Origin: Lytechinus pictus
Lineage: Eukaryota
NCBI RefSeq assembly: GCF_037042905.1
Contig: NC_087251.1
Span: 17,114,001 to 17,178,000 of the forward strand
Direction: 5' to 3'
Length of the DNA: 64,000 nucleotides
Part shown: in pieces, positions 10,502-60,790 of the stretch
How the letters are laid out: every line of letters starts with the position of its first letter
How positions within the stretch are numbered: position 1 is the stretch's first letter
The notes under the pieces: generated by a model
Told to the model about the DNA's origin: nothing
What the model saw: the letters and a program-made list of their open reading frames with translations, nothing else
Databases searched by the model: none
Translations under genes and position numbers: made by a program

Positions 10502-10781
10502 GTATCGTTGTGGCTGACTGGGGCCCAGTGTGGAGAGAACAGAGAAGGTTCACCCTGACGTCACTTCGTAACTTTGGTTTTGGAAAAGAGAACTTTGAAG
10601 GCGAAATTCAGGAGGAAATTCGTTACATGTTGGCAGCTTTCAAAGAGAAGGAAGGATCGTCGTTTAACTCTGATCATATCGTAGAGATCGCCGTATCAAA
10701 TGTCGTCTGTAACTTCAACTTCGGACGGAGGTTCGAGTATCAAGACCCCAAATTCCAGCTTCTTGTGGATAGCATCTATAG
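10502..10781 (+). CDS. Cytochrome P450 (clan 2, CYP2-like), internal coding exon A (C-helix region)
   Basis: AG acceptor 10500-10501, GT donor 10782. Encodes GIVVADWGPVWREQRRFTLTSLRNFGFGK...AVSNVVCNFNFGRRFEYQDPKF, with the WxxxR C-helix motif and CYP2-type sequence. Confidence 0.93.
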
Positions 10782-11390
10782 GTAGAAAGGACCCCCTTTT
10801 GTGTAGTTTTTTAAAATTATGTATTAGTTAATTAACTAATTAATCTATTTTTTAATCGATACGCTTGTCTATTCAGTATCGGACATAATTGTATTGATAA
10901 TTTAATGCTAATCATGTCATGATATCACTCTTGATAAGAGTTAAATTTATGCCGAATCCCCTTCTAAAAACCTAATGAAGAGTGAAATTTCGCCCCCAAC
11001 CGCCCTGTTAAACACTGGGTGAAAGATGAGGTATAATGGAAACACAAGTAGTAGTGACATATCCAACAATACGGTGACTCCACCTTTCAATTAACTTATA
11101 TGAACCACTTAGGTCACCCTCCCCCCCCCCCCCCCCCACGAAAGGCCTTGGCGTACTTGTATCACACATTTCAAAATCTCTTTCAAGTCAAGCTGAAAAT
11201 TGAGAACGATCAGCTCCAATCACCAATATTTCTAAGAAACCGATCAACGCATAATTCTGTAACCTAATTAGCATCCTGTTGATTGAAATTAGACTTGATA
11301 TTCATGCTGGATATAAATGTATACGCATTTTTGTCCTCAAGTTCTTATTAATTATTTGGATCCCTCCTATATTTCTGCATTCCTATTTAG

Positions 11391-11604
11391 ATTCGCCGAG
11401 ATAGGAACGAACGCCGCAGCAGTCAACTTCTTTCCTTTTCTGAAGCATCTTCCTATTCCTGAAATCCGAGAAGTGTTTGAGATCGATAAGGTGGTTCGTA
11501 GCTTCCTGGAGCGTATGATTGAAGATCATAAGGAGACATTTGATGAGACACGACAGAGAGATTTCATCGATGCTTATCTCCTGGAGATCAAACGCAGACA
11601 AGAG
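11391..11604 (+). CDS. Cytochrome P450 (CYP2-like), exon B (F/G/H helices)
   Basis: tttag acceptor, gtaaat donor, phase-compatible with exon A. Encodes FAEIGTNAAAVNFFPFLKHLP...IEDHKETFDETRQRDFIDAYLLEIKRRQE. Confidence 0.93.
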
Positions 11605-11999
11605 GTAAATCTTTTCCCTCTGTGTCTTAATGTTATATCAAAAAGATCGCTAAGCATGCGTGTAACTCGTCGGTAATTACCAGGATCTGATACCCCCTGT
11701 CTTTCATATTTCCCCATCAATACATCACCTTTTCAAAATAGATTTATTAGTCCGTTGCAATCTAGAGAAGCTTATCGTTATGGAACACAGTCAGTGTCAA
11801 GTACACGATCTTCCCAATCTTAATAAGCGTTATTTAACCATTAGATTATGAATAACATCGCAACACCATATTACACCACAGATGTTATAACCATGATCTG
11901 AATACGACTGTAGTTTGGATTTGTTTCCAATCCTATTTTAAAGATTGACGTAATTGTCTTAATCCATGACGACTTCTTGACGTCATCCTTAATTTTCAG

Positions 12000-12146
12000 G
12001 CACTGAAGAACGGGGAGAAAATAAGCGAGGTGGATGCATCCTTCACGGAGACATATCTATTTCACATCTTAAATGATCTCATCTTTGCTGGAACAGAGAC
12101 GATGAGTTCAACCATTCGATGGGCTATTCTTTATATGATAGTTCAG
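12000..12146 (+). CDS. Cytochrome P450 (CYP2-like), exon C (I-helix); not in the supplied ORF track
   Basis: ttttcag acceptor, gtaggt donor. Manual translation ALKNGEKISEVDASFTETYLFHILNDLIFAGTETMSSTIRWAILYMIVQ contains the AGxET I-helix motif. Confidence 0.93.
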
Positions 12147-12921
12147 GTAGGTTAACATTCAAACATTCATAAACTTCTGTCGAATATGTTTTTACAATAT
12201 GACTTAATTTCATGCTTTAAATGTTGCTTCAACTTGATGCAGTGTTTCCAAGTAAATAGAAAGCTGATAGGATATTTATTTCTTATGAAATGTATTATAA
12301 AAATTGTGGTGAATTTATGTAACTAGTTCACATTATGTGATTGATTTGATTCTTATATGTAGATCAGTTTTAGATGGTGTTAAATATCTTCAGACATTGC
12401 AAAAAGCCCTGGAGTAACTTCTTTTACAGCAAACATATCTCAGCATTTTTAATCAAAGAAGAAAATATTCATAAACACGATAAATTATGAAAGTGCATGG
12501 ACAGTCTTTTACAAATTGAAAGGTTCGATTAAAAAATCAGAGTTCATAACAGGTATAAATATTCAATTCAGAACATAAAAAACCTTTTCGTGATGTATTA
12601 TGTTTAACAAGAGTAATCACAAATCCTTGCAAACGCGACGCGTGGGATGTTGATTAACTATAAAAACTATAAATAGCCGTGACCTGTTTCGAGTCCAATA
12701 GCTGCTCATTCTTAGACAATGAATATAATATTTTCAAGAATAAATGTGAGAATATAACATCGCTTCGACTGTGATTTGAACCTTGAAGCTGGATTGCGTG
12801 ACCAGTCATGTTCAAGATGATCTATCCGGGCTCCCGTTTAGGCAATCATTAGCTTGAATCATATCAATTACAATATTGTAGATCAATTATTAGCATTTTC
12901 TTGAACGATTTTGAAATGTAG

Positions 12922-13264
12922 CCAGAAGTACAGAGGAAGGTCCAAGACGAGCTTGATGCGGTTATTGCATCCGGGGAACTCCCGTCATGGAGGAACAGGA
13001 ACCGTACGCCTTACACAGAAGCTACACTCATGGAGATCCAAAGGATGGCCAACATCACTGCCCTAACCTTCCCACACAAGACTACAGAAGATACAGACCT
13101 AGCAGGCTACAGTATTCCCAAGGATACGCATGTCTTCATCAATCTGTATTCAGTCCATGTAGACCCAACCCTCTGGAAAGAACCTGATAAGTTCATGCCA
13201 GAAAGGTTTCTGAATGAAGATGGAACTGTCATCCACAACCCGGCTCTCATGCCCTTCTCTGCAG
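12922..13264 (+). CDS. Cytochrome P450 (CYP2-like), exon D (J/K helices, PERF)
   Basis: atgtag acceptor, gtgcgt donor. Encodes PEVQRKVQDELDAVI...PYTEATLMEIQR (ExxR)...WKEPDKFMPERFL...MPFSA. Confidence 0.93.
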
Positions 13265-13769
13265 GTGCGTATATAGCTTTATTGGAAGAATATACCATTT
13301 GCAGCCGTCGATTCATTACATTCAAAGATAATTTGATCTTTTTGGCCAAATTATTTAACAATTTCAATAATTTTCCTTTATGTTCTTGTAATCGGACAAC
13401 CACCCGGAACATGAACATTTGGTCAATATCTCTAGGAAGTGTTCATGAAGTGCCATGCTGGCTTGTAGGCAATATTAAAGAACAGCTATTAGTATCATAA
13501 TCAGTAACGTATCATTTTTTCAATGGTCGGCAAATATAAGCGAATTCATGAAGAAAAATCACTTACATGTCGCTTCATAAAGTAATCCCCTGTATAATTA
13601 AGACTTGCTTGTTTTACTCGAATGTCCACTACCAGCCGAGGGGGAAGGGTAGTCATTTATGTACTTACTATGCTTCAGTATAATGTAAATATACAGTATA
13701 TATATGAACATTTACCCCACGAATATGAAGTAAATTATCATCTTACTCATATGCTATATTCTTCTTTAG

Positions 13770-13951
13770 GTCGACGAGCATGTCCAGGTGAGAAACTTGC
13801 AAGGATGGAACTATTTTTATTCTTCTCATCGATGCTTAGATACTTCACGCTCATCCCCGCACCAGAGAACCCAAACCCGAGTATCTACAAGAACTATGGC
13901 ATCAGCTTAAACCCCAAACCATACAAGATCTGTGTAATACAACGCCAGTGA
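13770..13951 (+). CDS. Cytochrome P450 (CYP2-like), terminal exon (heme-binding Cys)
   Basis: ctttag acceptor. Splicing to exon D gives FSAGRRACPGEKLARMELFLF (FxxGxRxCxG). TGA at 13949-13951. Confidence 0.94.
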
Positions 13952-38358: not shown

Positions 38359-39672
38359 GATAAGAGGATGAGGGGTTGGAGGAAAGTAAGAACAAGAAGT
38401 GACTCATTTGAAAGTAAAAGTAATTAGGCAATGAAGAGCAAAGGTAGATGAGTTATAATGCTAATTAAGATAATTTAATTTTCTTTTTTTTACGTAAAAC
38501 CTCAATTTCCTCAATCTGTCAAAATACATTGTATCAAGGACAGGATGAGGTGTAAAATAAACTATTCTTTCAAAAATAGAAGGGAAAAAGATCAGAGCAT
38601 ATTAAAAGATTGAATACTAACATCATCTGATGAGCAACATCTCATAGGAAAACATCTGAACAAACAGAATAATTTCCTTTTCCCTTTCCTTTCTCAAGAA
38701 TCCACCCCAGGTAATGAAAGTACAAGCAATGCAGATACTGGCATTTCCACCAAAAGTCCTGCTTTTCAGATCAACAAGTGAAACTATTGTTTTAGTATTC
38801 TAATTTTAGTGACTCAGTACACGCATTACTCCCAGTTTCAGGCTAATCAATTGTTATTGAGATTGGTTCAATACACTCACATGATTATAATTGAAATGGC
38901 ATGGGAATCTATTGTTAGATAAACTTTGTTTTCGTATGGTGTAATAAAGGAGGTTAACAAGTTTCCGGTCCGTGTATGGCAGTTCATGCCCTGTTCACAA
39001 TTTTCAAATAATCAAATGATACGTTACCGTACCTCCCTGATTTGCTGACACAGGTAAATACAAAGAATTGAATGCATAGTACTTGGTACATGGTACAAAC
39101 AACCATGTGAACAAGAATGCACGCTACAATCACAGATCAGCAAGCTGCATGCAAGTGTATTGTCAATGGCAGTATGTCGTATCTTGAATACCGAGGCCCA
39201 CATGCTTTCAACTGGATGGCTCCAAACTGCTCAATTTCAAAAGGAATTAATACAGGAGCTCAATTGATTCCAAAAGCTAATATCTTTTTTTTCCTTTGAT
39301 TTTAAGCACATGGTTCAAATTAACTGATATTGTAATGACAATAACTGAACCCCCCCCCCCCCATCCCTGAAATCATGGCCTTTAATGGACTGACATCAAA
39401 ATAAATGGATTTTGACCAATTTAAGAAATGGGACCCTGGACAGTACAGTGGCTTGATTGGCCATTGAACCTCAGCCAAGTTTCTTTTTCCTGATTAGATT
39501 CCAATAATCATTGGTCAACTCTAAATTCAGATTCATTATCCTAAGAACAGGGAAAGTCATAAATAATAATTTATGTATATTTTTTACCACTAACAGTTTA
39601 CTTTACATCTGTGTCCATATCTCGGAAACAAACTCCAAGCCTTGGAGAGAATATTCAAAGTATGTATACACT

Positions 39673-40516
39673 GGGCCGTATGCATAAAAACAAGCAATTG
39701 CTTGTGCTAGCCTTTTGCTTGAATCGGTATGCACACAAACAAGCAATTGCTCATAAGCAAAAGCTTTTGCTTACAAGCACAGACAATTGCTTACTACTCG
39801 TAAGCAAATGCTTACCAAACAAGCAATTGCTTAAAACCGTATGCATAAAACAAACCTTTTACTTGTCTTGATAAGCAATTGCTTGCGTTTTTTCAAGCAC
39901 CTCCAGACCAGCTTGAGCTCTTGCTTACTCATGGCATTCTGGTTTAAGGATTACATTTTCATACCGTTTCAAGCTCCATATTCCAGAGGTTATGTTGTGA
40001 TTTCATATCTAATCAAATTCCTGTTATTTTAGACTTTTTACGGCAATTTTTGTCCATCGATCTACACAGAAACCCCCCTGATGCTCTGCACTGTTTTCCC
40101 CCTATTTGCGTAATAAAAAATACTTCTGCCAGGTCGGGAACGAAGCGTCGTTGTCCTACTGTGCGATGTTCGCACAACCGTAACGATCCTTTGTCCAACA
40201 CATAAGCAATTGCTTAGGCAGTGCAAGCAAAAAAAAAAATTGAATAAACCTAATTTCATATAATAAAATACAAAAGAACAAGTGGAGATGTGACATCATC
40301 AGTCCACCTAATGAATATTCATGACGACAGTTTTCACAAAATATCGCTAAACTTTAAAATTCAACAACTTTGATACTTTGACGGATTTTGATGAAATTTT
40401 CGGCATTGTGCTCAGTGAATTCTACTCTATTTATTAAGCTATAAATATTTTCAGCCCGGACCATCCCTTTAAAGCATTTGCTTATAAGCAATTGCTTGTC
40501 TTTATGCATACGGCCC
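39673..40516. mobile_element. Harbinger-like MITE with an AAGCAATTGCTT subterminal array; carries a fragment of the TTAA-MITE family (~40230-40470)
   Basis: TIR GGGCCGTATGCATAAA / TTTATGCATACGGCCC; many copies of palindromic AAGCAATTGCTT. The inner segment resembles 46630-46660 plus 54175-54300. Confidence 0.8.
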
Positions 40517-40753
40517 AATGTCACGGCTCAAGGCTGTGAATAGCACATCTTTGCACCAATTACATTCATATTTGGTGAAAATATGTGTGGCCTGTCAATT
40601 TCTCATCAAAAGTTTCTCTCCCCTCCAAATTCTGTCCCTCTACTGAAAGGGGAGTAAAAAAGAAAGAATATGAAGAGGATTTTTTGGGGCACAGGAAGTT
40701 ATCCTCTATATGGAGACGATATAAATGCAGGTTGAAAGCAAGTGCGGGGCTAC

Positions 40754-44600: not shown

Positions 44601-44729
44601 TGCTACAGTAAGCATCGGCTATATCAAGCATCGGATAGAAGTGCTAAGACTTTTGAAACTTATTACTTCTCATTATTAATGCATAGATATCATGATACAT
44701 TAATTAACATGAAAGACTTGGTTGATTAC

Positions 44730-44998
44730 CTGATTTTGGTTAACATTGATTTCTATGGCTTGGATGGTCTGGCAGCCATCGGGTATCTGCGTTATCAGGT
44801 TCTTTGATAGATCCAGTACATCGAGATGTCTTAGGGCCCCTATGTCTGTAGGAAAGTTCTTGATCTGATTGCCAGATAGGTGAAGAGATTTCAGAGAAGA
44901 CAGTCTAGTGATGGATGATGGGATGCTCGTCAAACGGTTACCTGATAAACAGAGTGTATCAAGCTTCTTCAGCGAGAAGAACTCTTCCGGCAAAATAA
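44730..44998 (-). CDS. LRRC57: LRRC57 coding exon (VILPEEFFSLKKLDTLCLSGNRL...LRHLDVLDLSKN...IEINVNQNQ)
   Basis: ccag acceptor and gtaatc donor, 269 bp, phase 1/0. LxxLxLxxN LRR repeats match LRRC57. Confidence 0.94.
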
Positions 44999-45337
44999 CT
45001 GGAGTTGAGAAAGACACAGAGCACAACAATAATATTTCATTGAACTGGTGATTAAAACCATTACAGAACTAAATGTAACATACTGATTTTAATTTAATTT
45101 GGTGAATATCATTTCATAAAAAAGCAACAAAATATTTGGCTACTTTAAGAGATTGGCATTTCCCTGAAATACTTCATTTGTGTAGGAAGATATCATGCTT
45201 TTTTTGAAAAATGACATTCATTTCCAAATAACTACCATGAATATATTTTTTTCATAATGCACTGCATCTGTCTGAATTTGTAGCAGACTGTACATGTAGA
45301 GTGTAGGCACATAGTCAACTTAGATGTATCCATTTAA

Positions 45338-45927: not shown

Positions 45928-46665
45928 TTAAGTTTTTGCAAAGAACTCTATATTCAGTCAACAAACAATCGTGTTGTTGAATTCATGACTGACCTAGCCC
46001 AGGTACAGGAGAGAAATCAAGCTGCGAATGAGATCAACACACACTCTAATGAAGAGTTGACTGATGTGATAATTACTATAAGATACAAGCCATTACTTTC
46101 AACTTACCAAATTTGATTACTAATGCAGATTAACTCAATTTTGTACATTACATTTTATGAAAACAAATCAATCTACAGTTTGATGAAAGAATAAAGAAGA
46201 CAAAATACCAATTTTCACATATGTTAAAAATAATCTGTGAATTTACGGTCTAAAAGAGTTCATAATTTAAAGGTCAAGTCCACCCAAGAAAAATGTGGAT
46301 TTGAATCGATAGAGAAAATCCATCAGCCATAACACTGAAAATTTTATAAAAATCGGTTGTAAAATAAGAAAGTTTTGATTACTTTTCACAAAATAGTTAT
46401 ATGCAGAAATCAGTGACATGCAATTGAGAGAGTCGATGATGTCCCTCACTCACAATTAATTTTTTTTTATTGTTTGAATTATACAATATTTCAATTTTTA
46501 CAAATTTGACAAGGACCAACTTGACTGCACCATAAAATGTTATTAAAACAACATTGGTAACTTCAGATGTTCAGGGAGGAATACATGTAAAACTTTCCAT
46601 CACATGACAATGAGGGGAAAATTAGAATACTGTATTTCATATAATAAAATACCAAAGAAATATGG

Positions 46666-47663
46666 TGTCAGGAAAGAAATTTAATTATAGAGTATTTCAG
46701 TTGAGTTCAGACATGTGTTTAAAATATTTACTTGGTCCAGCTTATGGTAGGCCTATAGACAATTGTATATGTACATATGTTTTGAATGTTTCAAAAGCAA
46801 GCGTTGGGAACGTTTGATACACCCCCCCCCTAGAGTCCAAGATCAGGTGGATGTCATATTTTGTTCAAGTGTTAGACATATTTCGTACTAGCTAAGCATC
46901 TTCATACAGGTGTCATAAATAGTTAATACTGTGCTTTAGCATTGAAGAATGTAGATGTACAGATGCACAGGAAGTCTTTTTGTTATTAAGAATGTGTTGC
47001 TTTATGCACTCATCTGCTATAAAAATTCTTTGAATTACGTTATAGAAATTTTACAGTTATTCCTAGTAACGGTAGGGTATATTAGGAGGTTAGTTTCAAT
47101 AATTCAAGGAGAACCACCTAAGCTAGAATAGACTACAGACGTTCGTATAGGCAGTCTAAGTTATAACTGAAGGGACTACGTCGGTGACGAGATAACGACC
47201 CCAGCTGCCACCGGTTCTCCACCGACATGTTTTCGTCAAAACTCATGTCATCATTGGGGGCTCGATCTCGTCCACTAATTCGTTGAAGCCACATCTCTGA
47301 TCTGGGGGTTACTCATCAAAGGGGCAACACAGTCTGCGGAGGCCGAGGCCGAGTGGAAGAGACATCGCTAGCTGCGGAGGCCAGGAACTGGACCGACCAC
47401 CAGGGCCGAGTGGGGCATGTCAGGCCAGATGAGACGATGGGGGCTAGAGTCAACGATTACCGTTAAGTTAAGTTGTATTTTGTTTTATCCATGTACATTT
47501 TCATGTACAAATTATTGTAAAACCATCAAAAGAGAACATCAGAAAGATTGAAGAGATATGATTAAATCTTTTTAATAACTGTATTTATCAGTTTCACGTA
47601 TTCTTTTTTGGTGTCAAGCAGCAGTAAGTAAATAATTAAAAAAAAGTCACTTCCCACGTGACA
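46666..47663 (+). repeat. 5' LTR (998 bp)
   Basis: TGTCA...TGACA; direct repeat of 53173-54169. Confidence 0.97.
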
Positions 47664-47666
47664 ATT

Positions 47667-47683
47667 TGGAGGTCCCACCGAGA
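47667..47683 (+). other. Primer binding site complementary to the tRNA-Gln 3' end
   Basis: TGGAGGTCCCACCGAGA lies 3 nt after the LTR. It is the reverse complement of the metazoan tRNA-Gln 3' end (...TCTCGGTGGGACCT-CCA). Confidence 0.88.
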
Positions 47684-48299
47684 CACTGCTGCTTGAAATA
47701 ATTCAAAATTATTTAGGAAAGAAATTAATCTGTGGTCATCTTTCCAAATGGATACTTTATTGATGGTCTATTGGTAATAGCTCTTAAAAGTATTTCTCCC
47801 CAAGGTGTGCATTGAAGCCTTGGTACTAATCATACTTGCTATGCTTGAATTTACATTTGGATAGTACGATGAATTATTGTGGGAAATTTTCAGTGAGAAA
47901 ATATACTTCATACCTTTTTTCGGCCGGGTAAACAGCATTTAGGGAAAGCAGGCCCTGTTTTAATGCTATGGTATATAGTGGGCTGTTGGTCGTTAGGATA
48001 AAGGATATGTCGGGAAGAACTGTTTGTTCTTAATTCACATAATTACTGTCTATTCTTACGGGTAACTCGTTGGCAGGGTAGCAAGTATTGTATGTTACAG
48101 ACTGTGAATTTGTATGTGTGAAGTGGGCTTTGTTGTTCGCATGGTTGAATAATTGTATGCTCGTGGAGATACGATTTCTAGTGCGGTGCTTGTACTAGGG
48201 TTCGGCATTTGGTTGCCAGGTTAAAGCTATTGTTGCTTTGTTTTGCGGACGCCTTTCACAATTCAAGTCTGGTTGCTAGGTTTTTGGAATTCATTCAAT

Positions 48300-51200
48300 A
48301 TGGCTAGCATAGAGAAAATGAAGGAGTTTTCTACTTTAGGTAGGGAGATGGGACTTAGTGGTGGCGAATTGAGTAGTTTTGTCACAGATTCGATGGAACG
48401 TGAACGAGAACGTGAAAAGGAAGTTCATGAATTGCGCTTGGCCCAAATTAAAATTGAACAGGCAAAATTAGAGGAACGCCCTCTTGAGTTCAGTGGGATT
48501 AAGTTGAAGGTAGGAAAGTTTGACGAATCAACTGACAGTTTTGATTCTTACATAACAAAGTTTGAATTGTTAATGGATAGTCAGAACGTACCAAAACAAG
48601 TTAGGTGCTTGCATTTAATTTCAAATCTGACTGGAAAATCGCTGGATGTAGTGAATAGAATGAATAGCACTGATCGCACCGATTATGATAGGGTAAAGCG
48701 TGAGCTTATGGAATATTTCCATCTTACTGAGAATGGTTATAGAAAGAAATTCAGGTCGGTAAGACCAAATAGGGAAGAGCGCCCAAAACAGTTTGCTGTT
48801 CGGATGAAAGGATACTTTGATAAGTGGTTGGATTTGTCTGGTGTTGGTGATTACGATTCCCTGGTCGATTTGGTTGTTAGGGAGCAATTTTTGGATTGTT
48901 GCCCCAGAGAGGTAGTTGGATTCTTGAAGGAAAGGAATTGTGGGAAGTTACATGAGATGGTTGAATGTGCTGAGATATATGTGCATGCGCATGGATTGCA
49001 TACTTTCATTGGTCATAGAAATGATAAATTCAATCCTAAGAATCAGAACCAAAGACAGAATCAAAATCAGAAACAGAAATTAAGTCAGATCCATAACACT
49101 AAATCAGTATTAGGTCCACAGGCAGATAGGAAGCCCAAGTATGCTAGTTCAACGAAAAATAGCACAAAACCTAGCTATGGTAATAGCGGTACAAAGAATG
49201 GATGTTATATGTGTGGTAGTCCGAATCATTTGAAATGGAATTGTCCAATGAAGCCCATAGTTCATTCAGCTCAGGCTATGAGTGTGGAGGACACTCCACT
49301 GGATAGTGTTAGGTCAGAAAATTCGGGTTTACATTTGAATAGGAATGAGAATTTTATGTCAATAGGAACTTTGCGTTCAGACGATAGGGCTAGTAGTCAG
49401 TCAAAATCCACTGGATTTGTTGAAAGTTCAGCTGGATGTGTTCTCATAGGCAATCCAATGATTACAGTTCCGTCAGAAAGTGAGAGTGTTGAAACGCTTG
49501 GTATGGCATACGATGAGGTTGGTGCAATGATTGATGATATGCCAGTTGTTTCGGGTAGGTTGTTACCCAAGAACAAGCCTGTTTCCGTGCTGAAGGATTC
49601 TGGGAGTAGTACAAGTGTAGTGAGAACGAGTTTAGTATTAGACAATCAGTTCACGGGAGTGATTCAGTTAGTTAGGCTGATAGATGGTACTCTGAGACGT
49701 TTTCCTAGGGCAAATATCATGCTAGATAGTCCCTATTTCATTGGAGAAATCAATGCCTTGTGTATGCCCAATTGTTTGTGTGACGTCATTATTGGCAATG
49801 ATGTGAAGGGGGCACGTGAGCCCAAGGATCCTGACCTGCAATGGGTGCCTAGTATAGTTCAAAAGGCGAATAGTTCCGATGTTGATGATCGGGTATCCGA
49901 AGTTGATATGCAAAGTTCGGAAGTTGTGTCGAGTTCGGAAGATAATGTTCGGGTTTCCAAAATGGATGAGTCTGTTACGAAAGTGGATGAGGTTTTGGAT
50001 GATGTGCCTTCATGTGTGGATGAGGCGATGGCTGTTGAAACTAGAGCACAAAAGCAAAGTCAATCTAAACCTAAACAAGATTTGAAAGTAAGAGACTCGG
50101 GAGTAAAAGTGAAGTCGGAGGACTTTTTGCGAGAGCAAAAGGATGATTTGTCACTTAAGCCTTTGTGGAACAAGGTGAATGATATCGAGACTAAATCGAG
50201 ATTCTTGTTCATGTCAGAGAAGAATTGTCTTTATCGACAAGAAAGGGATATGAGAAATCCAAGTGTTGGTGTTGGTCCCAAGTTAGTGGTTGTTCCAAAG
50301 ACACACAGGTCTGAGATTATGCGAATTGCCCATGATTCATTGTTTGGTGGACATCTCGGCATTAACAATACATTGTCAAAGGTTAAAGCCCAGTTTTATT
50401 GGCCAAGTATGTATGAGGATGTTGCCAATTTCTGCCGATCATGTGACGTGTGTCAGAAGACTGTTAGTAAAGGGAGAGTCCCCAAAACGACTCTCGGTAA
50501 GTTACCGATAGTTGGCGTCCCATTTCAACGAATTGCGATAGATTTAATGGGTCCATTCATTCCATCTGCAAGAGGACATACTCACATCTTAACGATAGTA
50601 GATTATGCGACTAGATATGTAGAAGCTATACCATTGAAATCAATATCGACTGTAGATGTAGCTGAGGCATTAGTCACTGTGTATAGTAGGGTAGGTGTTC
50701 CTTGTGAAGTAATGTCAGACTTAGGTACACAATTTGTATCTGATTTAATGAGGAAGGTGTCACAGTTGTTATCAGTCAAACAAATAACAAGCTCTAGATA
50801 CCATCCGATGTGTAATGGCCTTGTAGAGAGGTACAATGGAGTAATTAAGACAGCTTTGAGGCGTCTTTGTTCTGAGGAGCCACGTCAGTGGGACAGGTAC
50901 TTACCTGCTTTGTTGTTTGCTCTGCGAGAAGCACCCAGTTCGAGCCTGGGGTTTTCTCCATTTGAATTACTCTATGGTAGACATGTGAGAGGTCCAATGG
51001 ATATTTTGAGAGAATTATGGACGAATGAGAGTATTGACGCAGAGTTAGGTAACGAGTATGAATACGTAATTGACTTAAGGAAGCGGTTGGTCGAGTCTTG
51101 GCAATTGGCGCAAGACACTTTGAAATCCTCCGCAAAGAGGTACAAAGGTTATTATGATCGAAATGCGAAGAAAAGGAAGTTGATTGTTGGTGATGAGGTC

Positions 51201-51827
51201 TTGATACTTTTACCTACTGTTCATAACAAGTTACTAGTGGAATGGCAAGGACCATTTAAGGTTGTTGGTACCAAGTTTGACTATGATTATGTTGTCGACG
51301 TCAATGGTGTGAGGAAGACATATCATATCAATCTTCTCAGGCGATATGTTCGTAGGGAAGAAGAGGTGGCTGCTAGCTGTTTTGATGTTGGTACTTTCAA
51401 TGTTAAGGATAAAGAAGAGGGAGAGATGATAGATGAGTGTATTGGAGATGCGCCTGATATGCCATGCTCATTACAAAAGGAGTTTGTGAATCATGTTCAT
51501 GATCCTAAGGATGAGGTTCGAGAATTGTCATGCGAATACCAGGATGTATTCACGATCATTCCTAAGCGAACTTCAGTGGCTGAGTGTAAAATTAATTTGA
51601 CAAGTGATGGACCTGTTCGTTCTCCCCCTTACACTAGAGTACCCCAAGTTGTCGAGGTTGAGTCAATGCTGAAGTCAAGGGTTGTCGAGCCTTCGGATCC
51701 GTCTTATGCGCATCCGATTGTATTGGTTAAGAAACCGGATAGTTCAGACTGGTTTTGGATAGATGTCCGGCACCTTAACAAGATAACCGTGTTTGATCCC
51801 GGGTCTATATCAAATGAGCTGGTGTGA
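48300..51827 (+). CDS. Retrotransposon polyprotein (1175 aa from ATG): SCAN-like Gag, CCHC knuckle, aspartic protease, integrase, truncated RT
   Basis: SCAN-like YRKKFR...LVVREQFL (~48738-48990); CYMCGSPNHLKWNC (49203-49244); LKDSGS protease (D at 49596); HHCC (50331-50453); D,D(35)E at 50541/50718/50826; WQGPF (~51249); RT N-terminal stub PIVLVKKPD...IDVRHLN (~51543-51824), then stop. Confidence 0.95.
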   Translation: MASIEKMKEFSTLGREMGLSGGELSSFVTDSMEREREREKEVHELRLAQIKIEQAKLEERPLEFSGIKLKVGKFDESTDSFDSYITKFELLMDSQNVPKQVRCLHLISNLTGKSLDVVNRMNSTDRTDYDRVKRELMEYFHLTENGYRKKFRSVRPNREERPKQFAVRMKGYFDKWLDLSGVGDYDSLVDLVVREQFLDCCPREVVGFLKERNCGKLHEMVECAEIYVHAHGLHTFIGHRNDKFNPKNQNQRQNQNQKQKLSQIHNTKSVLGPQADRKPKYASSTKNSTKPSYGNSGTKNGCYMCGSPNHLKWNCPMKPIVHSAQAMSVEDTPLDSVRSENSGLHLNRNENFMSIGTLRSDDRASSQSKSTGFVESSAGCVLIGNPMITVPSESESVETLGMAYDEVGAMIDDMPVVSGRLLPKNKPVSVLKDSGSSTSVVRTSLVLDNQFTGVIQLVRLIDGTLRRFPRANIMLDSPYFIGEINALCMPNCLCDVIIGNDVKGAREPKDPDLQWVPSIVQKANSSDVDDRVSEVDMQSSEVVSSSEDNVRVSKMDESVTKVDEVLDDVPSCVDEAMAVETRAQKQSQSKPKQDLKVRDSGVKVKSEDFLREQKDDLSLKPLWNKVNDIETKSRFLFMSEKNCLYRQERDMRNPSVGVGPKLVVVPKTHRSEIMRIAHDSLFGGHLGINNTLSKVKAQFYWPSMYEDVANFCRSCDVCQKTVSKGRVPKTTLGKLPIVGVPFQRIAIDLMGPFIPSARGHTHILTIVDYATRYVEAIPLKSISTVDVAEALVTVYSRVGVPCEVMSDLGTQFVSDLMRKVSQLLSVKQITSSRYHPMCNGLVERYNGVIKTALRRLCSEEPRQWDRYLPALLFALREAPSSSLGFSPFELLYGRHVRGPMDILRELWTNESIDAELGNEYEYVIDLRKRLVESWQLAQDTLKSSAKRYKGYYDRNAKKRKLIVGDEVLILLPTVHNKLLVEWQGPFKVVGTKFDYDYVVDVNGVRKTYHINLLRRYVRREEEVAASCFDVGTFNVKDKEEGEMIDECIGDAPDMPCSLQKEFVNHVHDPKDEVRELSCEYQDVFTIIPKRTSVAECKINLTSDGPVRSPPYTRVPQVVEVESMLKSRVVEPSDPSYAHPIVLVKKPDSSDWFWIDVRHLNKITVFDPGSISNELV

Positions 51828-53158
51828 GAGAGCTTTAGTTCACTAGGATGTTGATAATTACGGATATATGGTTCAAAATATATTTCATAAACATTAAATA
51901 CTTATACACAATATTATACACTGCTCGTTTTCGTAAAATAAACATTTTATATAATATCTGTGCACTTATGAATAGTAATATTTTCTATATTCCTGTCGTG
52001 TAAAAGAAGCCATAAGGCCAATTTTTTTTATATATATATATACAATGCTTTGTTTGATGCATAAGTATTTTGCAGATATTCATGATCTTTTTATCATTTA
52101 TTCCAGGTATCCTTGGATCTTCGAAGCTAATCACAATCGCAACTCAATTACAATTCGCGATTAGAAATTAGAATAGGGATTTACGTTAGTAGGGCTTACC
52201 TGTGAATTTAGTTAGAATAGGGAAACTTATAGGTCATTTAGTTTAGGAAGTTAGGAAATAAGATTGTAAAATTATATTTTTGTTGTACTTTATATAAAAT
52301 ATGTATGCAATGAAAACAAAACGGAAAGAGTCGCTTGTTCGTAAGAAGTCTTAAACAAAAAAAAATCTTAAAGAGTTATTGATATTCTAAAACAGGCACT
52401 TTCATTGTACAAAATACATATTTATGTGTTAGAATATGCTGTATTCGTACAAGTGCTATTCAAATTCGTTTAATGAAAATATTGCGAATCAGTAACTGTG
52501 TTTGAAATATAAAATTTGTTTCTTTAATCGATTATTTAAAAAAAATAAAATTAAGCAAGAACATAACGTTGAATTCAAATATGTTAAACATGAAACGGTT
52601 GAAACTTTGTAACCATTTTTGAAGTAATTTATGTACACAAAAATATGAATTTTTGAAAACTGAATGGCATTGCAATAATTTTAATTTACTTGAATGTTTA
52701 AAAAAAAAAATGCTGATTTTGAGAAGAATACTGATTTTACATACATAAAGCAATGTTTTAAGGATTATGAAGTACTTTCATTTATTGAAATATACAATGC
52801 TATGAAAGTGGTAACAAACACTGCACTTTGTTTTAAAAGAAGTTGTGTTCGGAAAGATTACTGAATTTAAACAGTTATTTGACAAAGCAAAGTAAGAAAG
52901 GATTGTAAATTATAATGCGCTTTGCAGAATTTAAACGATATTTTGAAACTGAAAGTGAAATTGATCTTTTACAAAACTAAAAAGCTTAGATGATTTGATA
53001 TGAAATGGTTTTGTATAATGCATTTGGCATATATGTTATGCTGGTATAAAAATCGATTATTACTTGTGTTTTTGGAAATAGTGTTATGAAAGCTTAGTCA
53101 ATGCTTTGAAAGTAAATTTCTTTAACGGATGTAATTCAGGTTCCCTTAATTTCATCTT

Positions 53159-53170
53159 AAGGTGGGGGAT
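53159..53170 (+). other. Polypurine tract
   Basis: AAGGTGGGGGAT ends 2 nt before the 3' LTR. Confidence 0.8.
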
Positions 53171-53172
53171 AT

Positions 53173-54169
53173 TGTCAGGAAAGAAATTTAATTATAGAGT
53201 ATTTCAGTTGAGTTCAGACATGTGTTTAAAATATTCACTTGGTCCAGCTTATGGTAGGCCTATAGACAATTGTATATGTACATATGTTTTGAATGTTTCA
53301 AAAGCAAGCGTTGGGAACGTTTGATACACCCCCCCCTAGAGTCCAAGATCAGGTGGATGTCATATTTTGTTCAAGTGTTAGACATATTTCGTACTAGCTA
53401 AGCATCTTCATACAGGTGTCATAAATAGTTAATACTGTGCTTTAGCATTGAAGAATGTAGATGTACAGATGCACAGGAAGTCTTTTTGTTATTAAGAATG
53501 TGTTGCTTTATGCACTCATCTGCTATAAAAATTCTTTGAATTACGTTATAGAAATTTTACAGTTATTCCTAGTAACGGTAGGGTATATTAGGAGGTTAGT
53601 TTCAATAATTCAAGGAGAACCACCTAAGCTAGAATAGACTACAGACGTTCGTATAGGCAGTCTAAGTTATAACTGAAGGGACTACGTCGGTGACGAGATA
53701 ACGACCCCAGCTGCCACCGGTTCTCCACCGACATGTTTTCGTCAAAACTCATGTCATCATTGGGGGCTCGATCTCGTCCACTAATTCGTTGAAGCCACAT
53801 CTCTGATCTGGGGGTTACTCATCAAAGGGGCAACACAGTCTGCGGAGGCCGAGGCCGAGTGGAAGAGACATCGCTAGCTGCGGAGGCCAGGAACTGGACC
53901 GACCACCAGGGCCGAGTGGGGCATGTCAGGCCAGATGAGACGATGGGGGCTAGAGTCAACGATTACCGTTAAGTTAAGTTGTATTTTGTTTTATCCATGT
54001 ACATTTTCATGTACAAATTATTGTAAAACCATCAAAAGAGAACATCAGAAAGATTGAAGAGATATGATTAAATCTTTTTAATAACTGTATTTATCAGTTT
54101 CACGTATTCTTTTTTGGTGTCAAGCAGCAGTAAGTAAATAATTAAAAAAAAGTCACTTCCCACGTGACA
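53173..54169 (+). repeat. 3' LTR (997 bp)
   Basis: By eye it differs from the 5' LTR only by one T/C substitution (46729 vs 53236) and one C in a homopolymer. Confidence 0.97.
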
Positions 54170-55864
54170 TATGGGTGACATCATCAGTCCCCCATTTGCA
54201 TACAAACAAGGATGTGCATTAACTGTTTTGTGAAATTAAACGAAATTTAAAAATGTCATAACTTTCTTATTTTACATCAGATTTTTATGAACTTTTCACC
54301 AATGGATTGTTGTTTGTTGGGTTTTTCTCTTTTTATTCAAATTAATTTTTTGATGGAGTGGACTTGTGCTTTAATATTACACTGCAATATACAGTATGTT
54401 TATAATCCATATACGGTAGTTGCTATATTAAGTAACATCTATGCCTTTAAAATTTAGATCCTCATTGCTCACACTTTATATACATCTTTGAACAATATTT
54501 ATTTTCATTTATTCAAGGTCTCAAATGTGCATCTTAATTAAGTTTTTTTGTTTTTTCTGCTCCTTCATATTTGAGGGAAACACAACCATAAAATAACTGA
54601 TGTCTAAAATATTTATCCATTATTTGAAATGAATATGTATTATCAAATTAAAAAAAATAATTTCAGGCTTGTTAAGGAAAATTCTAAATCAAGCTTGTAA
54701 TCATGCATGATCTAAAAAAAAAAAATCATATTTTTTCTTGGACAACTTTATAAAGCAGCAAAAATACATGGGGACATTAATTGTGTACAATAGACAACAT
54801 GCATAAATTTTTACCTGTTTATTGAATGCATGGTTGATATTTCTTTGATCTGATCCATGAAAATGTTGCTATCATGTATGTCTTTCCAGAAATCTCTACA
54901 TAGGCCTTTAGTAATCAAGCCTCCAGGGACACCTTTTCTGAGCCAAAACTTGTCTGATATGAGGGTTATCATAAGGTACCGACTTTCTATGATATTTCCC
55001 TCCCACTTTGCACAGATCAAATTATCAAACATTTCTTAGGAGTGATCTTGACCTTTGACCCGTGACCTAATATGAGTAGGAAGGTCGTGGCTCAAATTGC
55101 TAAACCTGTCAATCAAACACTCAAAACAGGGTCAGAGTTCACAAAATCAAAACAATTGTGGATAAAAATCAAATACTAAATTGTACTCATGATTCTCTTA
55201 TCTATGTATCTGTCTCTATTTCAACACTTGAATTTAGTTAGATGTCAAATTACTTTGGAGACTGGCACCATATATGCGCTTTGGCCAAGACTGTTTGATA
55301 CACAAGGAGTCAAAGCAAATCAAATTTAAAGGCACATTATTATGCCAGTGGAAGTGGCATATTCCATCATAAATTGCTGGAATTAATTCTCTATATAACA
55401 TGGCTGATCAAATTTAAAGAAAGAATTACCCAAACTTTATCAATTTTTGTTTGTTATCATTCTGACTTTTCAAGTTCTACTTTTTTCATTTTGTGAGTAG
55501 GTCCTTACTAAATTTCAGTTTTAATCAAAAGGGAAAATTCACATTTAGAAAACCATGAACTTAATATCACGACACAAGTACCGTACAATTATTTCAATTA
55601 ATCTCCAGTACCAAACAATTATTTTATTATATTTTTTTTCACTTTGAATGGATGTAAGAAAAATTATAAAAATGATCATTATTACAGACAATGTTGTCAA
55701 TAATATGAAAAGATGTTAGATATTAGTTAGACAATGTTGACAATTTGGTAAAAATATCTGATATCCAATTTAATCAACAAATGAAAAAGATCGTTCACAG
55801 TATATTGCTGGCAAAGCAGACATTAGTCATATATTTTGACTTTACTGTGGAATGTTCTTTCTAA

Positions 55865-56053
55865 ATCTTAAATTTCTAACACCTCTGCCTAAACGAAACA
55901 CAATAGGTGGATGGGATATAATTCATCATTCTTTCAACCCAATGTTCTATTTTGACTTTACAGTGGTATTTTCTTTCTAAATATCAAATTTATAACACCC
56001 CTACCCAAAACACAATAGGCGGATTGGATATAATTCATCATTCTTTCTGCCCA
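55865..56053. repeat. Degenerate tandem duplication (~110-bp period)
   Basis: AAACACAATAGGYGGATKGGATATAATTCATCATTCTTTC occurs twice. Confidence 0.7.
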
Positions 56054-56821
56054 GAGTTCAAGGATATAGAGTTTTATTGCAACATCCATCATCTTAAATT
56101 GTCATCTTTACATCAAGTTTGGTATACCCATCACTTGGCAGAATCTTGGGTAGTTGTACTTTGCAAGTTCTTAGTTAGTTCAAGAGATACAGCACTCGCA
56201 TACCAAGCAATGAATAATCCAGGGTTGAAATTAATCATAGATTTCAGGGCTGTAGGATAAAAATGTAGATAATCCTTTTGGAAAAAAATTGGGGGAAAAT
56301 TTTAGGAAAAAAAATTGTCAAGACCTATGTGTTAAGGATATTAACATTACATACATAGCAAATATTTGGGATGAAATTGGGGCAAATCACACATTCGCAC
56401 GCAGGATACTGAATTAATGTGTTCAACTCAAATCTCACTGACCACCAATGTATAAAGTGTATTTGCATTCCAATATTTATAGGCCTACATGTACGTAGAT
56501 TATATTACTTTGGTACTCTTTCCAATTCTTACTTTTCTGCCATATATGGTATAACAAGAAACAGAAAGCACTGGAGACAAAGAGAATACTACACAACATA
56601 GTGTGGAAATGTGAATCCCGGTTCTGGCATCTTTAACCTTTGACCTTGAGTTAACTTGAAGGGGGGGGGGGGCACTTTACATTGGTGGTACAGCGACGTG
56701 CCGCTTTGATGACCCCCTTTTTCAGACCAAATTTTCAGTTCTCAAGATACTCTGAATGACAAAAGTTCCGTTCAGTAGCCTCCCTGCCCAGTTCACAAGA
56801 CCCCCGTTACGAACCATCTCA

Positions 56822-58249
56822 GGCCGTGTTTATGCTTCCATTTTTCAGGCAAGAATCAGCGTTTCCAAACGTGATTAGTCCAAAACACGGTTGCGTCCAT
56901 GCTTACTTTCATTTAAACGCTGTTTCAAAACGCCGATCGTAAACTCACAAAAAGGTGCGTTTGTAAACGTCGTTTGACCAGAATCAGGCTTTCTGGGGAA
57001 GTATAAACAGAACCACGATCGTAAACGTGTTTAAATGACGTCATTTGGTACATGCTTCCGGTGAGATGAAAATCCGCGGGCAAATACAGTCGCATTGCTC
57101 CATGGTCGAATGTTACCCCCACGGAATTACCTCTCATCTCCCTTTTCAAGATTCAAGATATATTTTATTCAATTTAGCAGCTACGAAGGCTGAATTGACA
57201 TTGAATTTACAATAAAAAACATATAAATTGCACATAAACATGAATAAAATCTCAATTACAATAATAATCTTAATTCAATTTAACCATAATAATTCAAATA
57301 TACAGTGATAATTCAAATTTACAAAAATAATGATTCTAATTTGCAATACTAATTTCGATTAACCATAATAATTTCAATGAACAATAATGATTCCAAAATA
57401 AGAGAAATGATAAGTTGAGTGTGTGTGTAAGGAAGCGTTTACAAGTAGAATATAAAGAGGAAAAAACGGTCCTGCTGAACAAAAAATCGAAAGGTTCAAC
57501 ACAATGGGAATAAAGATATATGGAAGGGGGGGGGGTACAAACCATCTTTCAGCAAATTATTATTAAAGTTTCAAAATAAATGGGGCATTGTTACAAAATA
57601 GGATAAAGGCATAATTGGTAAAATTGGCCATTGTTTCGTTCATCTGGTGTTTGGAATATAACGAAAATATAATTACTTGAACATACATAGGAAATTGATA
57701 ATATTCAACATGGATATAAAAAGGGTAATTAATACATGCGCAGTACTATTACTAGTATTACTCTTCCAATGTGTCATCACGATGAACGTTGATGGATTTA
57801 CACAAAAAAAAACCCGGAACATGAGTTATAATGAGGAGACATCGCCAGATGCCCCAGTAGCATAAACAACTTAATATTTTATTATTTTATATACTTAATA
57901 TTCTTTATTTTTTCTTATTATTATCCTCACCATGGTGGATTTATATGGCTATATCAAGAAGCTCCATGCAATGACTAAAATATCGGAAATTGTTCGATGT
58001 TTATATAACAGTCGACGTACCTTCCCATAACAACACTTGGGAAAAAAACTTTCGAAAAAGGGCGCGCCCAATTTGACCTCGCTTTCCTGCTCAACGAAAA
58101 TTACGATGCGAAGCCAGCTGGAGATCGTGATTTCGCCTCTGAAAAGTTAAGCATAAACAGCACTCACAGAACCACGTTTACGATCGGCGTTTTGAATCGA
58201 CGTTTGAAAACGCTGATTCTGTCCTCGCAATGGAAGCATAAACACACCC
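56822..58249 (-). mobile_element. PIF/Harbinger-like MITE copy A, interrupted at ~57145-57734
   Basis: TIR GGCCGTGTTTATGCTTCCA / TGGAAGCATAAACACACCC, 3-bp TSD TCA. Reverse complement of copy B (strand is relative to copy B). Confidence 0.88.
57145..57734 (-). mobile_element. Probable 3' end of a LINE/SINE inserted in MITE copy A
   Basis: Segment absent from copy B. It begins with the short tandem TTCAAGATTCAAGAT followed by TTTATT, which on - reads as AATAAA plus a microsatellite-like tail. Confidence 0.5.
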
Positions 58250-58511
58250 TCAGTTCCCCAGCCCTGCCAAAATTGTCCAGCACAAGCACGACGAAGCTAG
58301 ATGCGCACAGGGCTTCACAACTCCCTCCATACTAAGTAGACGCTAGCAGTTCCATGCATGGCTAGCGTTCTTTAGACCCACATTTTAGGGTTTCGCGCGG
58401 CACACCCCATCAAAATATAATTGTGAGTGCCCCCCCCCCCCCCCCCCGGGTTTGGTCCACCTTTAAAACTTGCCTTGTATATTAAACACATCATACTTTA
58501 TCATTGCTTCT

Positions 58512-59536
58512 GGGGTGTTTCATGAAGAGTTAAGTTGACTTTATTGTAGAGTCACACTTTAATGTTGATGCATGCGCACATGATACATGTTATTGTACCA
58601 GTATGTAATGCGCAATCTTATTGAATAGTACGCAGTAGTGCTTAGCATGATTTTACCAATGCAACTCTAAGGGTGTGTTTATGCTTCCATTGCGAGGACA
58701 GAATCAGCGTTTTCAAACGTCAATCGTAAACGTGGTTCTGGGAGTGCTGTTTATGCTTCACTTTTCAGCTCTAGGCAAAATCACGAACTCCAGCTGGCTT
58801 CGCGCTGTAATTTTCGTTGAGCAGGAAAGCGAGGTCAAATTGGGCGCGCCCTTTTTCGAAATTTTTTTTTCTGAGTGTTGTTATGGGAAGGTACGTCGAC
58901 TGTTATATAAACATCGAACAATTTCTGATATTTTAGTCATTGCATGGAGCTTCTTGCTATAGCCATATAATTTCCACCATGGTGAGGATAATAGGAAGAA
59001 AAAATAAAGAATATTAAGTATACAAAATAATGAAATATCAATTTGTTTATGCTACTGGGGCATCTGGCGATGTCTCCTCATTATAACTCATGTTCCGGGT
59101 TTTTTGGTGTAAATCCCTCAACGTTCATCGTGATGACAAATTGGAAGAGTAATACTAGTAATTGTACTACACATGCAAAACAAGGGATATGAGAGGTAAT
59201 TCCGTGGAGGTAACATGCGACCATGGAGCAATGCGACTGTATTTGCCCGCGGATTTTCATCTCACCGCAAGCATGTACCAAATGACGTCATTTAAACACG
59301 TTTACTATCGTGGTTCAGTTTATACTTCCCCAGAAAGCCTGATTCTGTTCAAACGACGTTTAAAAACGCACCTTTTTGGGAGTTTACGATCGGCGTTTTG
59401 AAACAGCATTTAAATTAAAGTAAGCATGGACGCAACCGTGTTTTGGACTAATCACGTTTGGAAACGCTGATTCTGGCCTGAAAAGTGGAAGCATAAACAC
59501 GGCCTAAGTCCCACTTATCTATTTGTGAAACACCCC
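58512..59536. mobile_element. Harbinger-like MITE hosting copy B
   Basis: TIR GGGGTGTTTCA / TGAAACACCCC with CTG-type flanks. Confidence 0.65.
58671..59504 (+). mobile_element. PIF/Harbinger-like MITE copy B (intact, 834 bp)
   Basis: TIR GGGTGTGTTTATGCTTCCA / TGGAAGCATAAACACGGCC, 3-bp TSD TAA. Confidence 0.9.
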
Positions 59537-60790
59537 CTGGTATTATATTGTTACCACACTGAAATCTATTAAAAAAGGTGATATATCTTTTTTTTTTTTA
59601 TGACGGTTAATCTACAGAAAATACATACATGTTCATATGAAAAGCATTTATCAATAAAGTTCATTGACTTTTTTTACCTTTGACCATAGTGGTATTTAAC
59701 CTATTTAAAAAAAAAAAATCTTGTTTATTTTTGTTTTTCACAAAATGTGTCTGAATTTATTGATCCTTGAATGTTCAGAGTACAAATTTGACCATAAGCT
59801 CAAAGAGGTTTCTGAACTTTAAAGGCAAATAATCAGGAGTTTACTTGCCATGAAGGTATTGAACTCTCCTATTAAATCTAGTAAATAGAATTTTATTCAA
59901 ACTAATTCTGCTCATTGCCTGACCGACATGTTTCTGTGAATGTGCTTCCTATAAATATCCTTCAATGTGCATTTAGATTTGAAGCAAATTATTGTGCCCT
60001 TAAATAGGCTCATGCCAATGAGGCAAGTTCTTTCATTTCATTGAGAGAAGCTGAGGTTCTATTCTTAGGGGTTTTCTTCAAGGAATGTCCCAAGTGATGA
60101 GATTGAAATACCTTGGCATTAAGTCTTTAGAGGGTAAACCATGAAGGAGCCAGGATTCCCTAAGTATCCCACACCTAACCATCTCTCACAATTAGATCTA
60201 GTTAGCTGGCTCGCTTGCGTGCCATGTGGCCATGCTGTGCAGGGTTGAGTCTGCGTACATCTGTTCTGGTTATCACCTCTCATACATGCAGTAAGACAAG
60301 ATGTCTTCGCACATTGCCTGGCTTAACCGTGACATACGAGATTCTTAATCTCTCCATAAACAAAAAGCGTAAAAAGTTAGGGAAGTTTCAGACACCCAGC
60401 CAGCTCATTCTCCGTGTCATTTCAGAAACATGAGAGGAAGTTTAGATTGAAGTCTCAAACCTCACAAGTTCTTGGCTTAAAACTCACTCTTTCAGATTCT
60501 TATAGCTTGCACGTACAGAGCTTGTAGATGGGTCACACTTTAATAGCTCCACATATTTATTTTTGAAAGCATACTATGCAGACAAATAAAATAAATAAGA
60601 ATACTAATTTTCATATCGAAGTTTAACTACTTTATTTACTTTTATCCGAGCACGTCATTATTGATTACCTCCTTATCCATTCTATGCAGAGTGCTTGGCT
60701 ATAATAAGGGCAACTTGATATCTTTGCTCTGACTTGGCTGTGGTCTGGGTTCTGGGGCTGACTGCAGAAAGAGATGGACAATAAAATCAC

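Follow-up and report, generated by a model that had tools for sequence, protein, structure and literature searches.

A young Gmr1-like retrotransposon of the sea urchin Lytechinus pictus: probable mosaic of a complete element and an old lineage without reverse transcriptase

The element described here, an LTR retrotransposon of ~7.5 kb with Gag, protease (PR) and integrase (IN) regions and a mere stub of reverse transcriptase (RT), is in our judgement a young, non-autonomous, Gmr1-like mosaic: it was probably assembled from a complete relative (form A) and an old RT-less lineage (form C), likely through a template switch, with RT and RNase H (RH) supplied by A. It occupies positions 46666..54169 – on the + strand, like all features below – of the window, that is, the whole stretch of 64,000 nucleotides of Lytechinus pictus DNA that we analysed and to which all coordinates refer. 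A first-pass annotation of this DNA had explained the combination of a recent insertion and a heavily decayed RT by a lineage that had long replicated without RT while selection preserved the other genes. Judging from the copies found across the genome, the Gag-PR-IN-only arrangement is instead a recent recombinant form, present in three copies with two crossover points.

The window copy and the three forms of its family

The ends of the element are intact, as the first-pass annotation had recognised. The target-site duplication (TSD) TATGG stands on both flanks (46661..46665 and 54170..54174); the LTRs, of 998 nt (46666..47663) and 997 nt (53173..54169), end in TGTC..GACA and are one substitution and one single-base indel apart; a primer-binding site (PBS; 47667..47683) is complementary to the 3′ end of tRNA-Gln(CTG), as read from host tRNA-Gln(CTG) genes; and a polypurine tract (PPT; 53160..53170) lies just 5′ of the 3′ LTR, shortly before 53173. 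Between these signals, a single open reading frame of 1175 aa (48300..51827, stop codon 51825-51827) runs uninterrupted and without frameshift through Gag, PR, IN and the RT stub. Its capsid region (aa 67-239, 48498..49016) contains a SCAN domain (Pfam, E 1.6e-9) and is followed by a CCHC zinc knuckle (aa 302-315, 49203..49244), visible in the sequence and below the zf-CCHC cut-off in the relative L036, and by an aspartic protease (49536..49844), assigned from its DSG motif (aa 433-435) and position, with no Pfam match. The integrase (50313..51347) comprises the HHCC part, the DDE core and a C-terminal part, is identical in protein sequence to that of A and, like the protease, keeps its catalytic motif (D..D..E); besides SCAN, Integrase_H2C2 and rve exceed the Pfam cut-off in this frame. 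The named proteins closest to it come from Lytechinus pictus (98%), then from Diadema and Strongylocentrotus.

No RT core or RNase H is left, again in agreement with the earlier annotation: Pfam matched neither RVT_1 nor RNase H in the 1175-aa frame and no family in the 108-aa stub, and a profile built from the part of RT-RH that follows the stub had no match in six frames of the whole window (control 4e-215). Two details of its account have to be revised. The H of ‘SYAHP’, taken for decay, is native, since complete relatives read SPYAHP; and RT was not lost by simple 3′ truncation, the stub being what was left by an internal deletion of ~349 codons that rejoins the frame ~15 nt before the complete element’s own stop codon (junction near 51806). 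Beyond the stop lies an AT-rich, non-coding tail (51828..53172, 27% GC), 99-100% like A beyond ~52030, with a splice acceptor (its AG ends at 52106) on which gene models in the databases rely; Rfam gave no matches across 46000-60000.

Searches of the genome with four queries – stub plus tail (40 of 62 candidates scored), integrase (36 of 36), the junction region of C (38 of 38) and RT-RH (20 of 20) – yielded one Gmr1-like family in three forms. Form A, the complete one, occupies six places with a close RT-RH; it measures ~8.6 kb, and its 1528-aa Gag-PR-IN-RT-RH frame is unbroken in three of them. In copy L031, Pfam finds H2C2 at 665-721, rve at 741-836, RVT_1 at 1155-1313 and RNase H at 1378-1505, and the best PDB matches of an A-type RT (a complete relative was tested) are the Ty3 RT structures 4ol8 and 7q5b, at E 1e-68. 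Form C, ~6.4 kb long, lacks both integrase and RT-RH, ends in the same RT stub and was recognised by its junction at 19 places among the 38 matches (18 whole, one split). Form B consists of the window copy, L021 and L022, on three contigs and with separate TSDs. Integrase ahead of RT and a SCAN-type capsid, together with a Ty3-type RT, would fit a Gmr1-like Ty3/Gypsy family.

The RT junction is common to all three B and 19 C places, with distinct 5-bp TSDs among them, so a deletion that struck the window copy alone after insertion can be discarded; as the first-pass annotation had supposed, RT-less copies have replicated, and non-autonomous copies outnumber complete ones by 22 to six. Its expectation of a complete partner was borne out as well: five copies carrying close RT-RH (L029-L032 and L035) share LTR, PBS and PPT with the window element, whose 5′ LTR is near-identical to theirs. 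With a gene missing, its cis signals intact and a partner at hand, the window copy may be classed as a non-autonomous LTR retrotransposon. Because young RT-less insertions need the RT of a partner, and A has the same LTR, PBS and PPT, we infer that A was the supplier.

Mosaic structure and its possible origins

The window copy follows A from the leader to the end of integrase and C across the RT stub. From 47664 to 51482 it differs from each of the A copies L030 and L032 at one of 3819 nt; from 51490 to 51977 it differs from L023, a copy of form C, at one of 488 nt, where A is only 81% alike. An identity scan agrees, giving ~100% to A up to the end of integrase and 84-89% across the stub, where L023 reaches 99.5%. 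Nineteen informative sites of A type are succeeded by 42 of C type (seven of the C-type sites are situated beyond the RT junction, in a stretch whose alignment to A is doubtful), which places the switch between 51482 and 51490; the C-derived patch then spans the post-IN linker, the decayed stub and the start of the 3′ UTR (51490..52021). In L021, 31 A-type sites precede 30 of C type, and both L021 and L022 switch between 51584 and 51606. These two share a 13-nt leader deletion and further derived alleles absent from the window copy, and their TSDs differ; given these alleles and the other crossover point, form B most likely arose twice, the L021/L022 version having been copied to two sites.

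Trees of 23 rows, none left out, place B with A for the protease (100/100) and inside C for the stub, where the window copy equals L023 over 191 columns (99/96 clade), although stub bootstrap values are not fully settled. Synonymous distances tell the same story: against A (L031), the window copy has a pS of 0.000 in the integrase and 0.224 in the stub, and for form B as a whole the integrase lies at 0.000-0.010, the stub at 0.17-0.22. The decayed stub is thus inherited from the old form C and the integrase comes fresh from A, which explains how so young an insertion can hold so heavily decayed an RT. The view that stub decay is older than the insertion was sound, whereas the long-lived lineage built upon it found no support.

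A lineage that lost only RT-RH and retained integrase under selection can indeed appeal to three Gag-PR-IN copies with separate TSDs and to the intact integrase motifs, but we hold it to be very improbable: the window integrase is indistinguishable from that of L031 (pS 0.000, pN 0.000), integrase is missing from every one of the 19 older places that hold a stub, and the crossovers are sharp and fall at two different points. No more credible is an assembly error that joined A to C. Copies 98-100% alike over kilobases would invite one, and the window’s own A-to-C junction is absent from the DNA reads and contigs examined, the one contig that crosses the position (run X1) continuing as A; yet matching TSDs stand at both flanks, the window contains no N, and the three B loci sit on separate contigs, show two different crossovers and carry alleles of their own.

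Somewhat less remote, though still improbable, is that the window copy was inserted as a complete A element and later overwritten from C by ectopic gene conversion, without ever having moved as B. Its C alleles are confined to ~51490-52021, with A-like sequence, LTRs included, on both sides, and its crossover type was met in this one copy. Against this, the C alleles of L023 end at the same 3′ border, so that a single switch from an RNA like that of L023 is enough; form B did reach two sites by copying, as L021 and L022 attest; and near-identical LTRs leave little time. For the window copy taken by itself, conversion would fit as well. A switch between A and C templates is the reading we prefer for the family, in which L023, L028 and L035 are mosaic too.

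Form C, its constraint and its dependence on A

Form C appears to be a long-lived RT-less lineage, divergent yet still producing new insertions. Both its deletions, of ~372 codons in the integrase and ~349 in RT-RH, are in frame. Eighteen of the 19 places were taken as 10-kb stretches, with both LTRs visible in 11; in nine of these 11 the LTRs differ by 0-4 substitutions and the flanks show a matching 5-bp TSD peculiar to the copy, and these nine young copies are 79 to 98% identical to the window copy over stub and tail. (Further flanking stretches searched for the 5′ LTRs of L040, L042 and L044 contained none.) The frame is open through the protease in all 11 and reaches the stub in nine. Since the stub is less decayed in L038, L041 and L044, decay went on after the deletion. 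DNA carrying a second organism label, organism B, may point to greater age: contigs from three of three runs, belonging to three studies, bridge both the integrase-deletion and the RT-deletion junction with an identity of roughly 90%, and complete copies occur there too. If that label denotes a separate species, C would predate the species split.

Changes on the C side were counted at codons common to L031 and the older L039, in eight C copies, leaving out the A-mosaics L023 and L028. By this simple counting, whose pairs are non-independent, dN/dS is 0.12-0.16 for the capsid and 0.12-0.17 for the protease, as against 0.46-0.52 for the PR-IN linker and 0.38-0.55 for the post-IN linker plus stub. 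The stub, too, stays below 1 (binomial p 0.001); set against the stub, the protease alone falls short of significance (Fisher p 0.08), while capsid and protease together give p 0.025. Of 15 shared indels that follow the protease, 12 are triplets, whereas the 3′ UTR has 18 triplets among 84 (Fisher 2e-5; 14 copies, counts depending on the alignment), and the frame stays open for ~300 codons beyond the protease. Part of the low dN/dS may be due to import from complete donors, for A and C do not separate in the capsid tree and the proteases of C vary little among themselves (pS 0.04). The Gag of C also has an N-terminal repeat expansion of its own; exact C proteins were absent from the protein collection searched.

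How might such a lineage persist? C would have arisen once, through the two internal deletions; an origin by copying of spliced RNA was considered and dropped, as its junctions fall elsewhere than the splice sites of the gene models and no AG acceptor is present at the integrase junction. Retroelement particles package two RNAs, and RT can switch between them. C could thus survive by entering mixed particles with the enzymes of A, and co-packaging would keep renewing its LTRs, tail and capsid region from that source. An RT switching between co-packaged A and C RNAs would generate mosaics, of which the window copy, L021/L022, L023, L028 and L035 are the expected trace; a switch within the short homology between the integrase end and the RT stub would yield form B, with integrase regained and RT not. 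Mosaics of defective and complete copies made by template switching are documented for Ty1 and ONSEN (PMC6894440).

Why C should keep Gag and PR is the least certain part of our account. We favour a benefit in cis: in a single-ORF element, a capsid with a self-cleaving protease may be the best gain for its own RNA, surrounding it with more particles, while enzymes, needed in few copies, can be borrowed. This is weakened by Ty1, whose Gag has no preference for its own RNA according to PMC3945221. A further layer, which we regard as unlikely though less so than conversion, is that C and B are kept because surplus capsid-protease helps A, as extra Gag for a single-ORF polyprotein, or restrains it, as copy-number control. 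The same domain set has been kept independently in C, in form D of a sister family, in Diadema gene models and in an ENA cluster, and the long open frame, the triplet bias and the repeat expansion peculiar to the Gag of C would suit such a role. Selfish spread, however, explains the same pattern; the open frame could simply shield the mRNA from decay; and database gene models suggest that A itself already makes spliced RT-less messages. Among RNA reads, ~6% of each of the runs X21-X23 held 2, 0 and 7 matches, respectively.

Parallels and relation to known systems

Gag-PR-only forms seem to have emerged independently elsewhere, as the sister family and Diadema gene models show at the level of sequence. 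The sister family, in the same genome and 59% identical to A in protein sequence, possesses an RT-less Gag-PR form of its own, D, with different junctions and a capsid nearly that of its partner (pS 0.01-0.03). In Diadema, a 16-member Gag-PR-stub cluster has other junctions again, and two integrase-less models bear RT – all of these being gene models rather than DNA. The Gag-PR-IN proteins without RT among the 35 homologs (P0007, P0011, P0022 and P0010) were set aside as parallels, because their ends resemble frameshifts or stops of complete elements and because the cluster of P0011 includes members of 1235 and 1626 aa, the shorter with a full RT-RH.

These parallels allow a broader, and in our opinion rather doubtful, proposition: single-ORF Gmr1-like elements of animals may time and again divide into one partner that makes the enzymes and a satellite of capsid and protease, the latter crossing speciation, trading parts with its partner in every direction and tuning the capsid:enzyme ratio or copy number of the family. 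If true, this would be a retroelement of two components and more than a parasite, one that regained integrase in the window and perhaps RT in Diadema. The family would in any case offer a natural record, in an animal, of how the RNAs of an autonomous element and its satellite share particles and recombine by template switching, and the crossovers could be placed to within 8-22 bases; and the convergent keeping of capsid and protease in several sea-urchin families raises the question of which proteins are made in cis and which are borrowed. Two practical lessons concern annotation: a search based on RT would overlook 22 of the 28 places of the family, and a young LTR pair around a decayed gene can mean recombination, not long selection. 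Gag/protease-only non-autonomous elements and template-switch mosaics are already known from plants, and it is the partnership of C and A, with its repeated origin, that seems worth following.

For animals, neither this family nor any other non-autonomous Gmr1-like element came up in the limited literature covered. Mammalian MaLR, VL30 and ETn are animal LTR elements moved by the enzymes of partners, and MaLR keeps a gag-like ORF. They belong to the ERV lineage and are not known to retain protease or integrase; the present family, by contrast, is not ERV-derived and keeps its protease, and in B its integrase. The soybean pair SNRE/SARE is reportedly a case (attributed to Du et al. 2010) in which a non-autonomous family is refreshed by recombination with an autonomous partner through LTR swapping; here, coding regions have been exchanged as well. 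With its 1175-aa frame the window copy is neither a TRIM nor a LARD, which have no coding region, and it shows the opposite pattern to BARE-2, which lacks Gag and keeps Pol – an arrangement that L058 of the sister family resembles.

TR-GAG elements (PMC4350172) are like the window copy and C in being non-autonomous, with Gag kept and LTR, PBS and PPT intact; but they are plant elements of <4 kb, selected as protease-less and defined by Gag only, whereas C measures ~6.4 kb with a protease and B 7.5 kb with an integrase, so that both fall outside that definition. The domain content of C recurs in sugar beet, where PMC13570524 lists 28 GAG/PROT-only families, along with 15 that carry further decayed remnants of POL, and reports template switching; the present family differs in being animal and Gmr1-like, with an intact ORF of measured constraint, a partner and crossovers resolved to a few bases, and integrase regained. 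The Ty1 and ONSEN mosaics, too, stem from defective and complete members recombining during reverse transcription, but from point-defective copies in induced bursts (PMC6894440), while C is a deletion lineage that has remained stable and apparently predates a species split. Closest in kind are the Gmr1-like Ty3/Gypsy elements themselves (PMC3587641; bioRxiv 10.1101/2025.03.03.638093), with which the family shares its SCAN-type capsid, PR, IN and RT-RH; those described in these sources are complete, whereas most copies of the family described here lack RT.

A second RT-less family in the same genome

The sister family, represented by the related copy L057 (its partner here), has also given rise to a form that keeps Gag and protease without RT, which we call D. 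This is a second RT-less family, independent of form C (the Gag–protease form without integrase and RT) of the family to which the window element belongs. Copies L051–L055 (for example, G000:C3:19037021-19043004) are 6.0–6.4 kb long, with LTR pairs 97.8–99.8% alike and the same PBS and PPT; in their ORF of 768–776 aa, Gag–PR is accompanied by the zinc-finger region of integrase and by a decayed remnant of the core. Compared with L057, this remnant has a pS of 0.36 and a pN of 0.2, while the capsid has a pS of 0.01–0.03. The D-specific segment was present at at least eight places in a genome search in which 40 of the 61 candidates were scored.

A further young sister-family copy, L058 (G000:C3:65784500-65794499; LTRs 99.8% alike), has lost ~1.8 kb by a deletion that covers gag, PR and the start of IN, and retains the IN core, RT and RH. 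Among the copies examined, this type of deletion was found in a single one.

Gag repeats, modelled splicing and the 3′ tail

At the Gag N-terminus of the C copies L025, L026, L033, L034, L036, L038 and L044, an 11-residue charged repeat is tandemly expanded, an expansion not found in the complete form A or in the window type B. For the window element, four database isoforms place donors inside integrase (50690–51143) and one common acceptor in the 3′ tail (52107), whose motif is present in 18 of the 22 copies checked; the resulting messages are predicted, from these database models, to be RT-less. Separately, a deep contig from run X1 lacks 122 bases at 52935–53058 and is a 3′ tail variant.

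Neighbouring genes and other repeats

A leucine-rich-repeat exon (44700–45068, minus strand; Pfam LRR_4, LRR_8) lies 1.6 kb from the LTR element, on the opposite strand; the element may be in an intron of the LRR gene or upstream of it. Exons at 10378–13951 (plus strand) look like cytochrome P450, judging by ExxR, PERF and heme-cysteine motifs recognised by eye. Nested long inverted repeats at 56818–59508 (outer arms of 327 nt, 96%; inner arms 57735–58253 and 58667–59175) resemble stacked foldback or MITE elements, and a MITE-like element of ~850 nt (39668–40521) has inverted repeats of 36 nt at its ends and subrepeats in its interior. Elsewhere in the genome, two ORFs of 708 and 201 aa at positions 3286–6004 of L050, inside a decayed family remnant, look like a non-LTR retroposon.

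Possible parallels in Diadema and in protein records

Among Diadema gene models, to which the observations on this genus are confined, a 16-member protein cluster from two species (15 members listed) lacks the integrase part corresponding to aa 604–957 of the complete protein P0005, ends C-terminally in an RT stub and has junctions that differ from those of C. The Diadema proteins are P0021, P0036–P0049, P0064 and P0019; in P0064 and P0019, the same part is absent and RT–RH is kept. The ENA protein records P0028 (a 19-member cluster) and P0025, Gag–PR proteins of 720–770 aa with decayed tails, are possibly further parallels.
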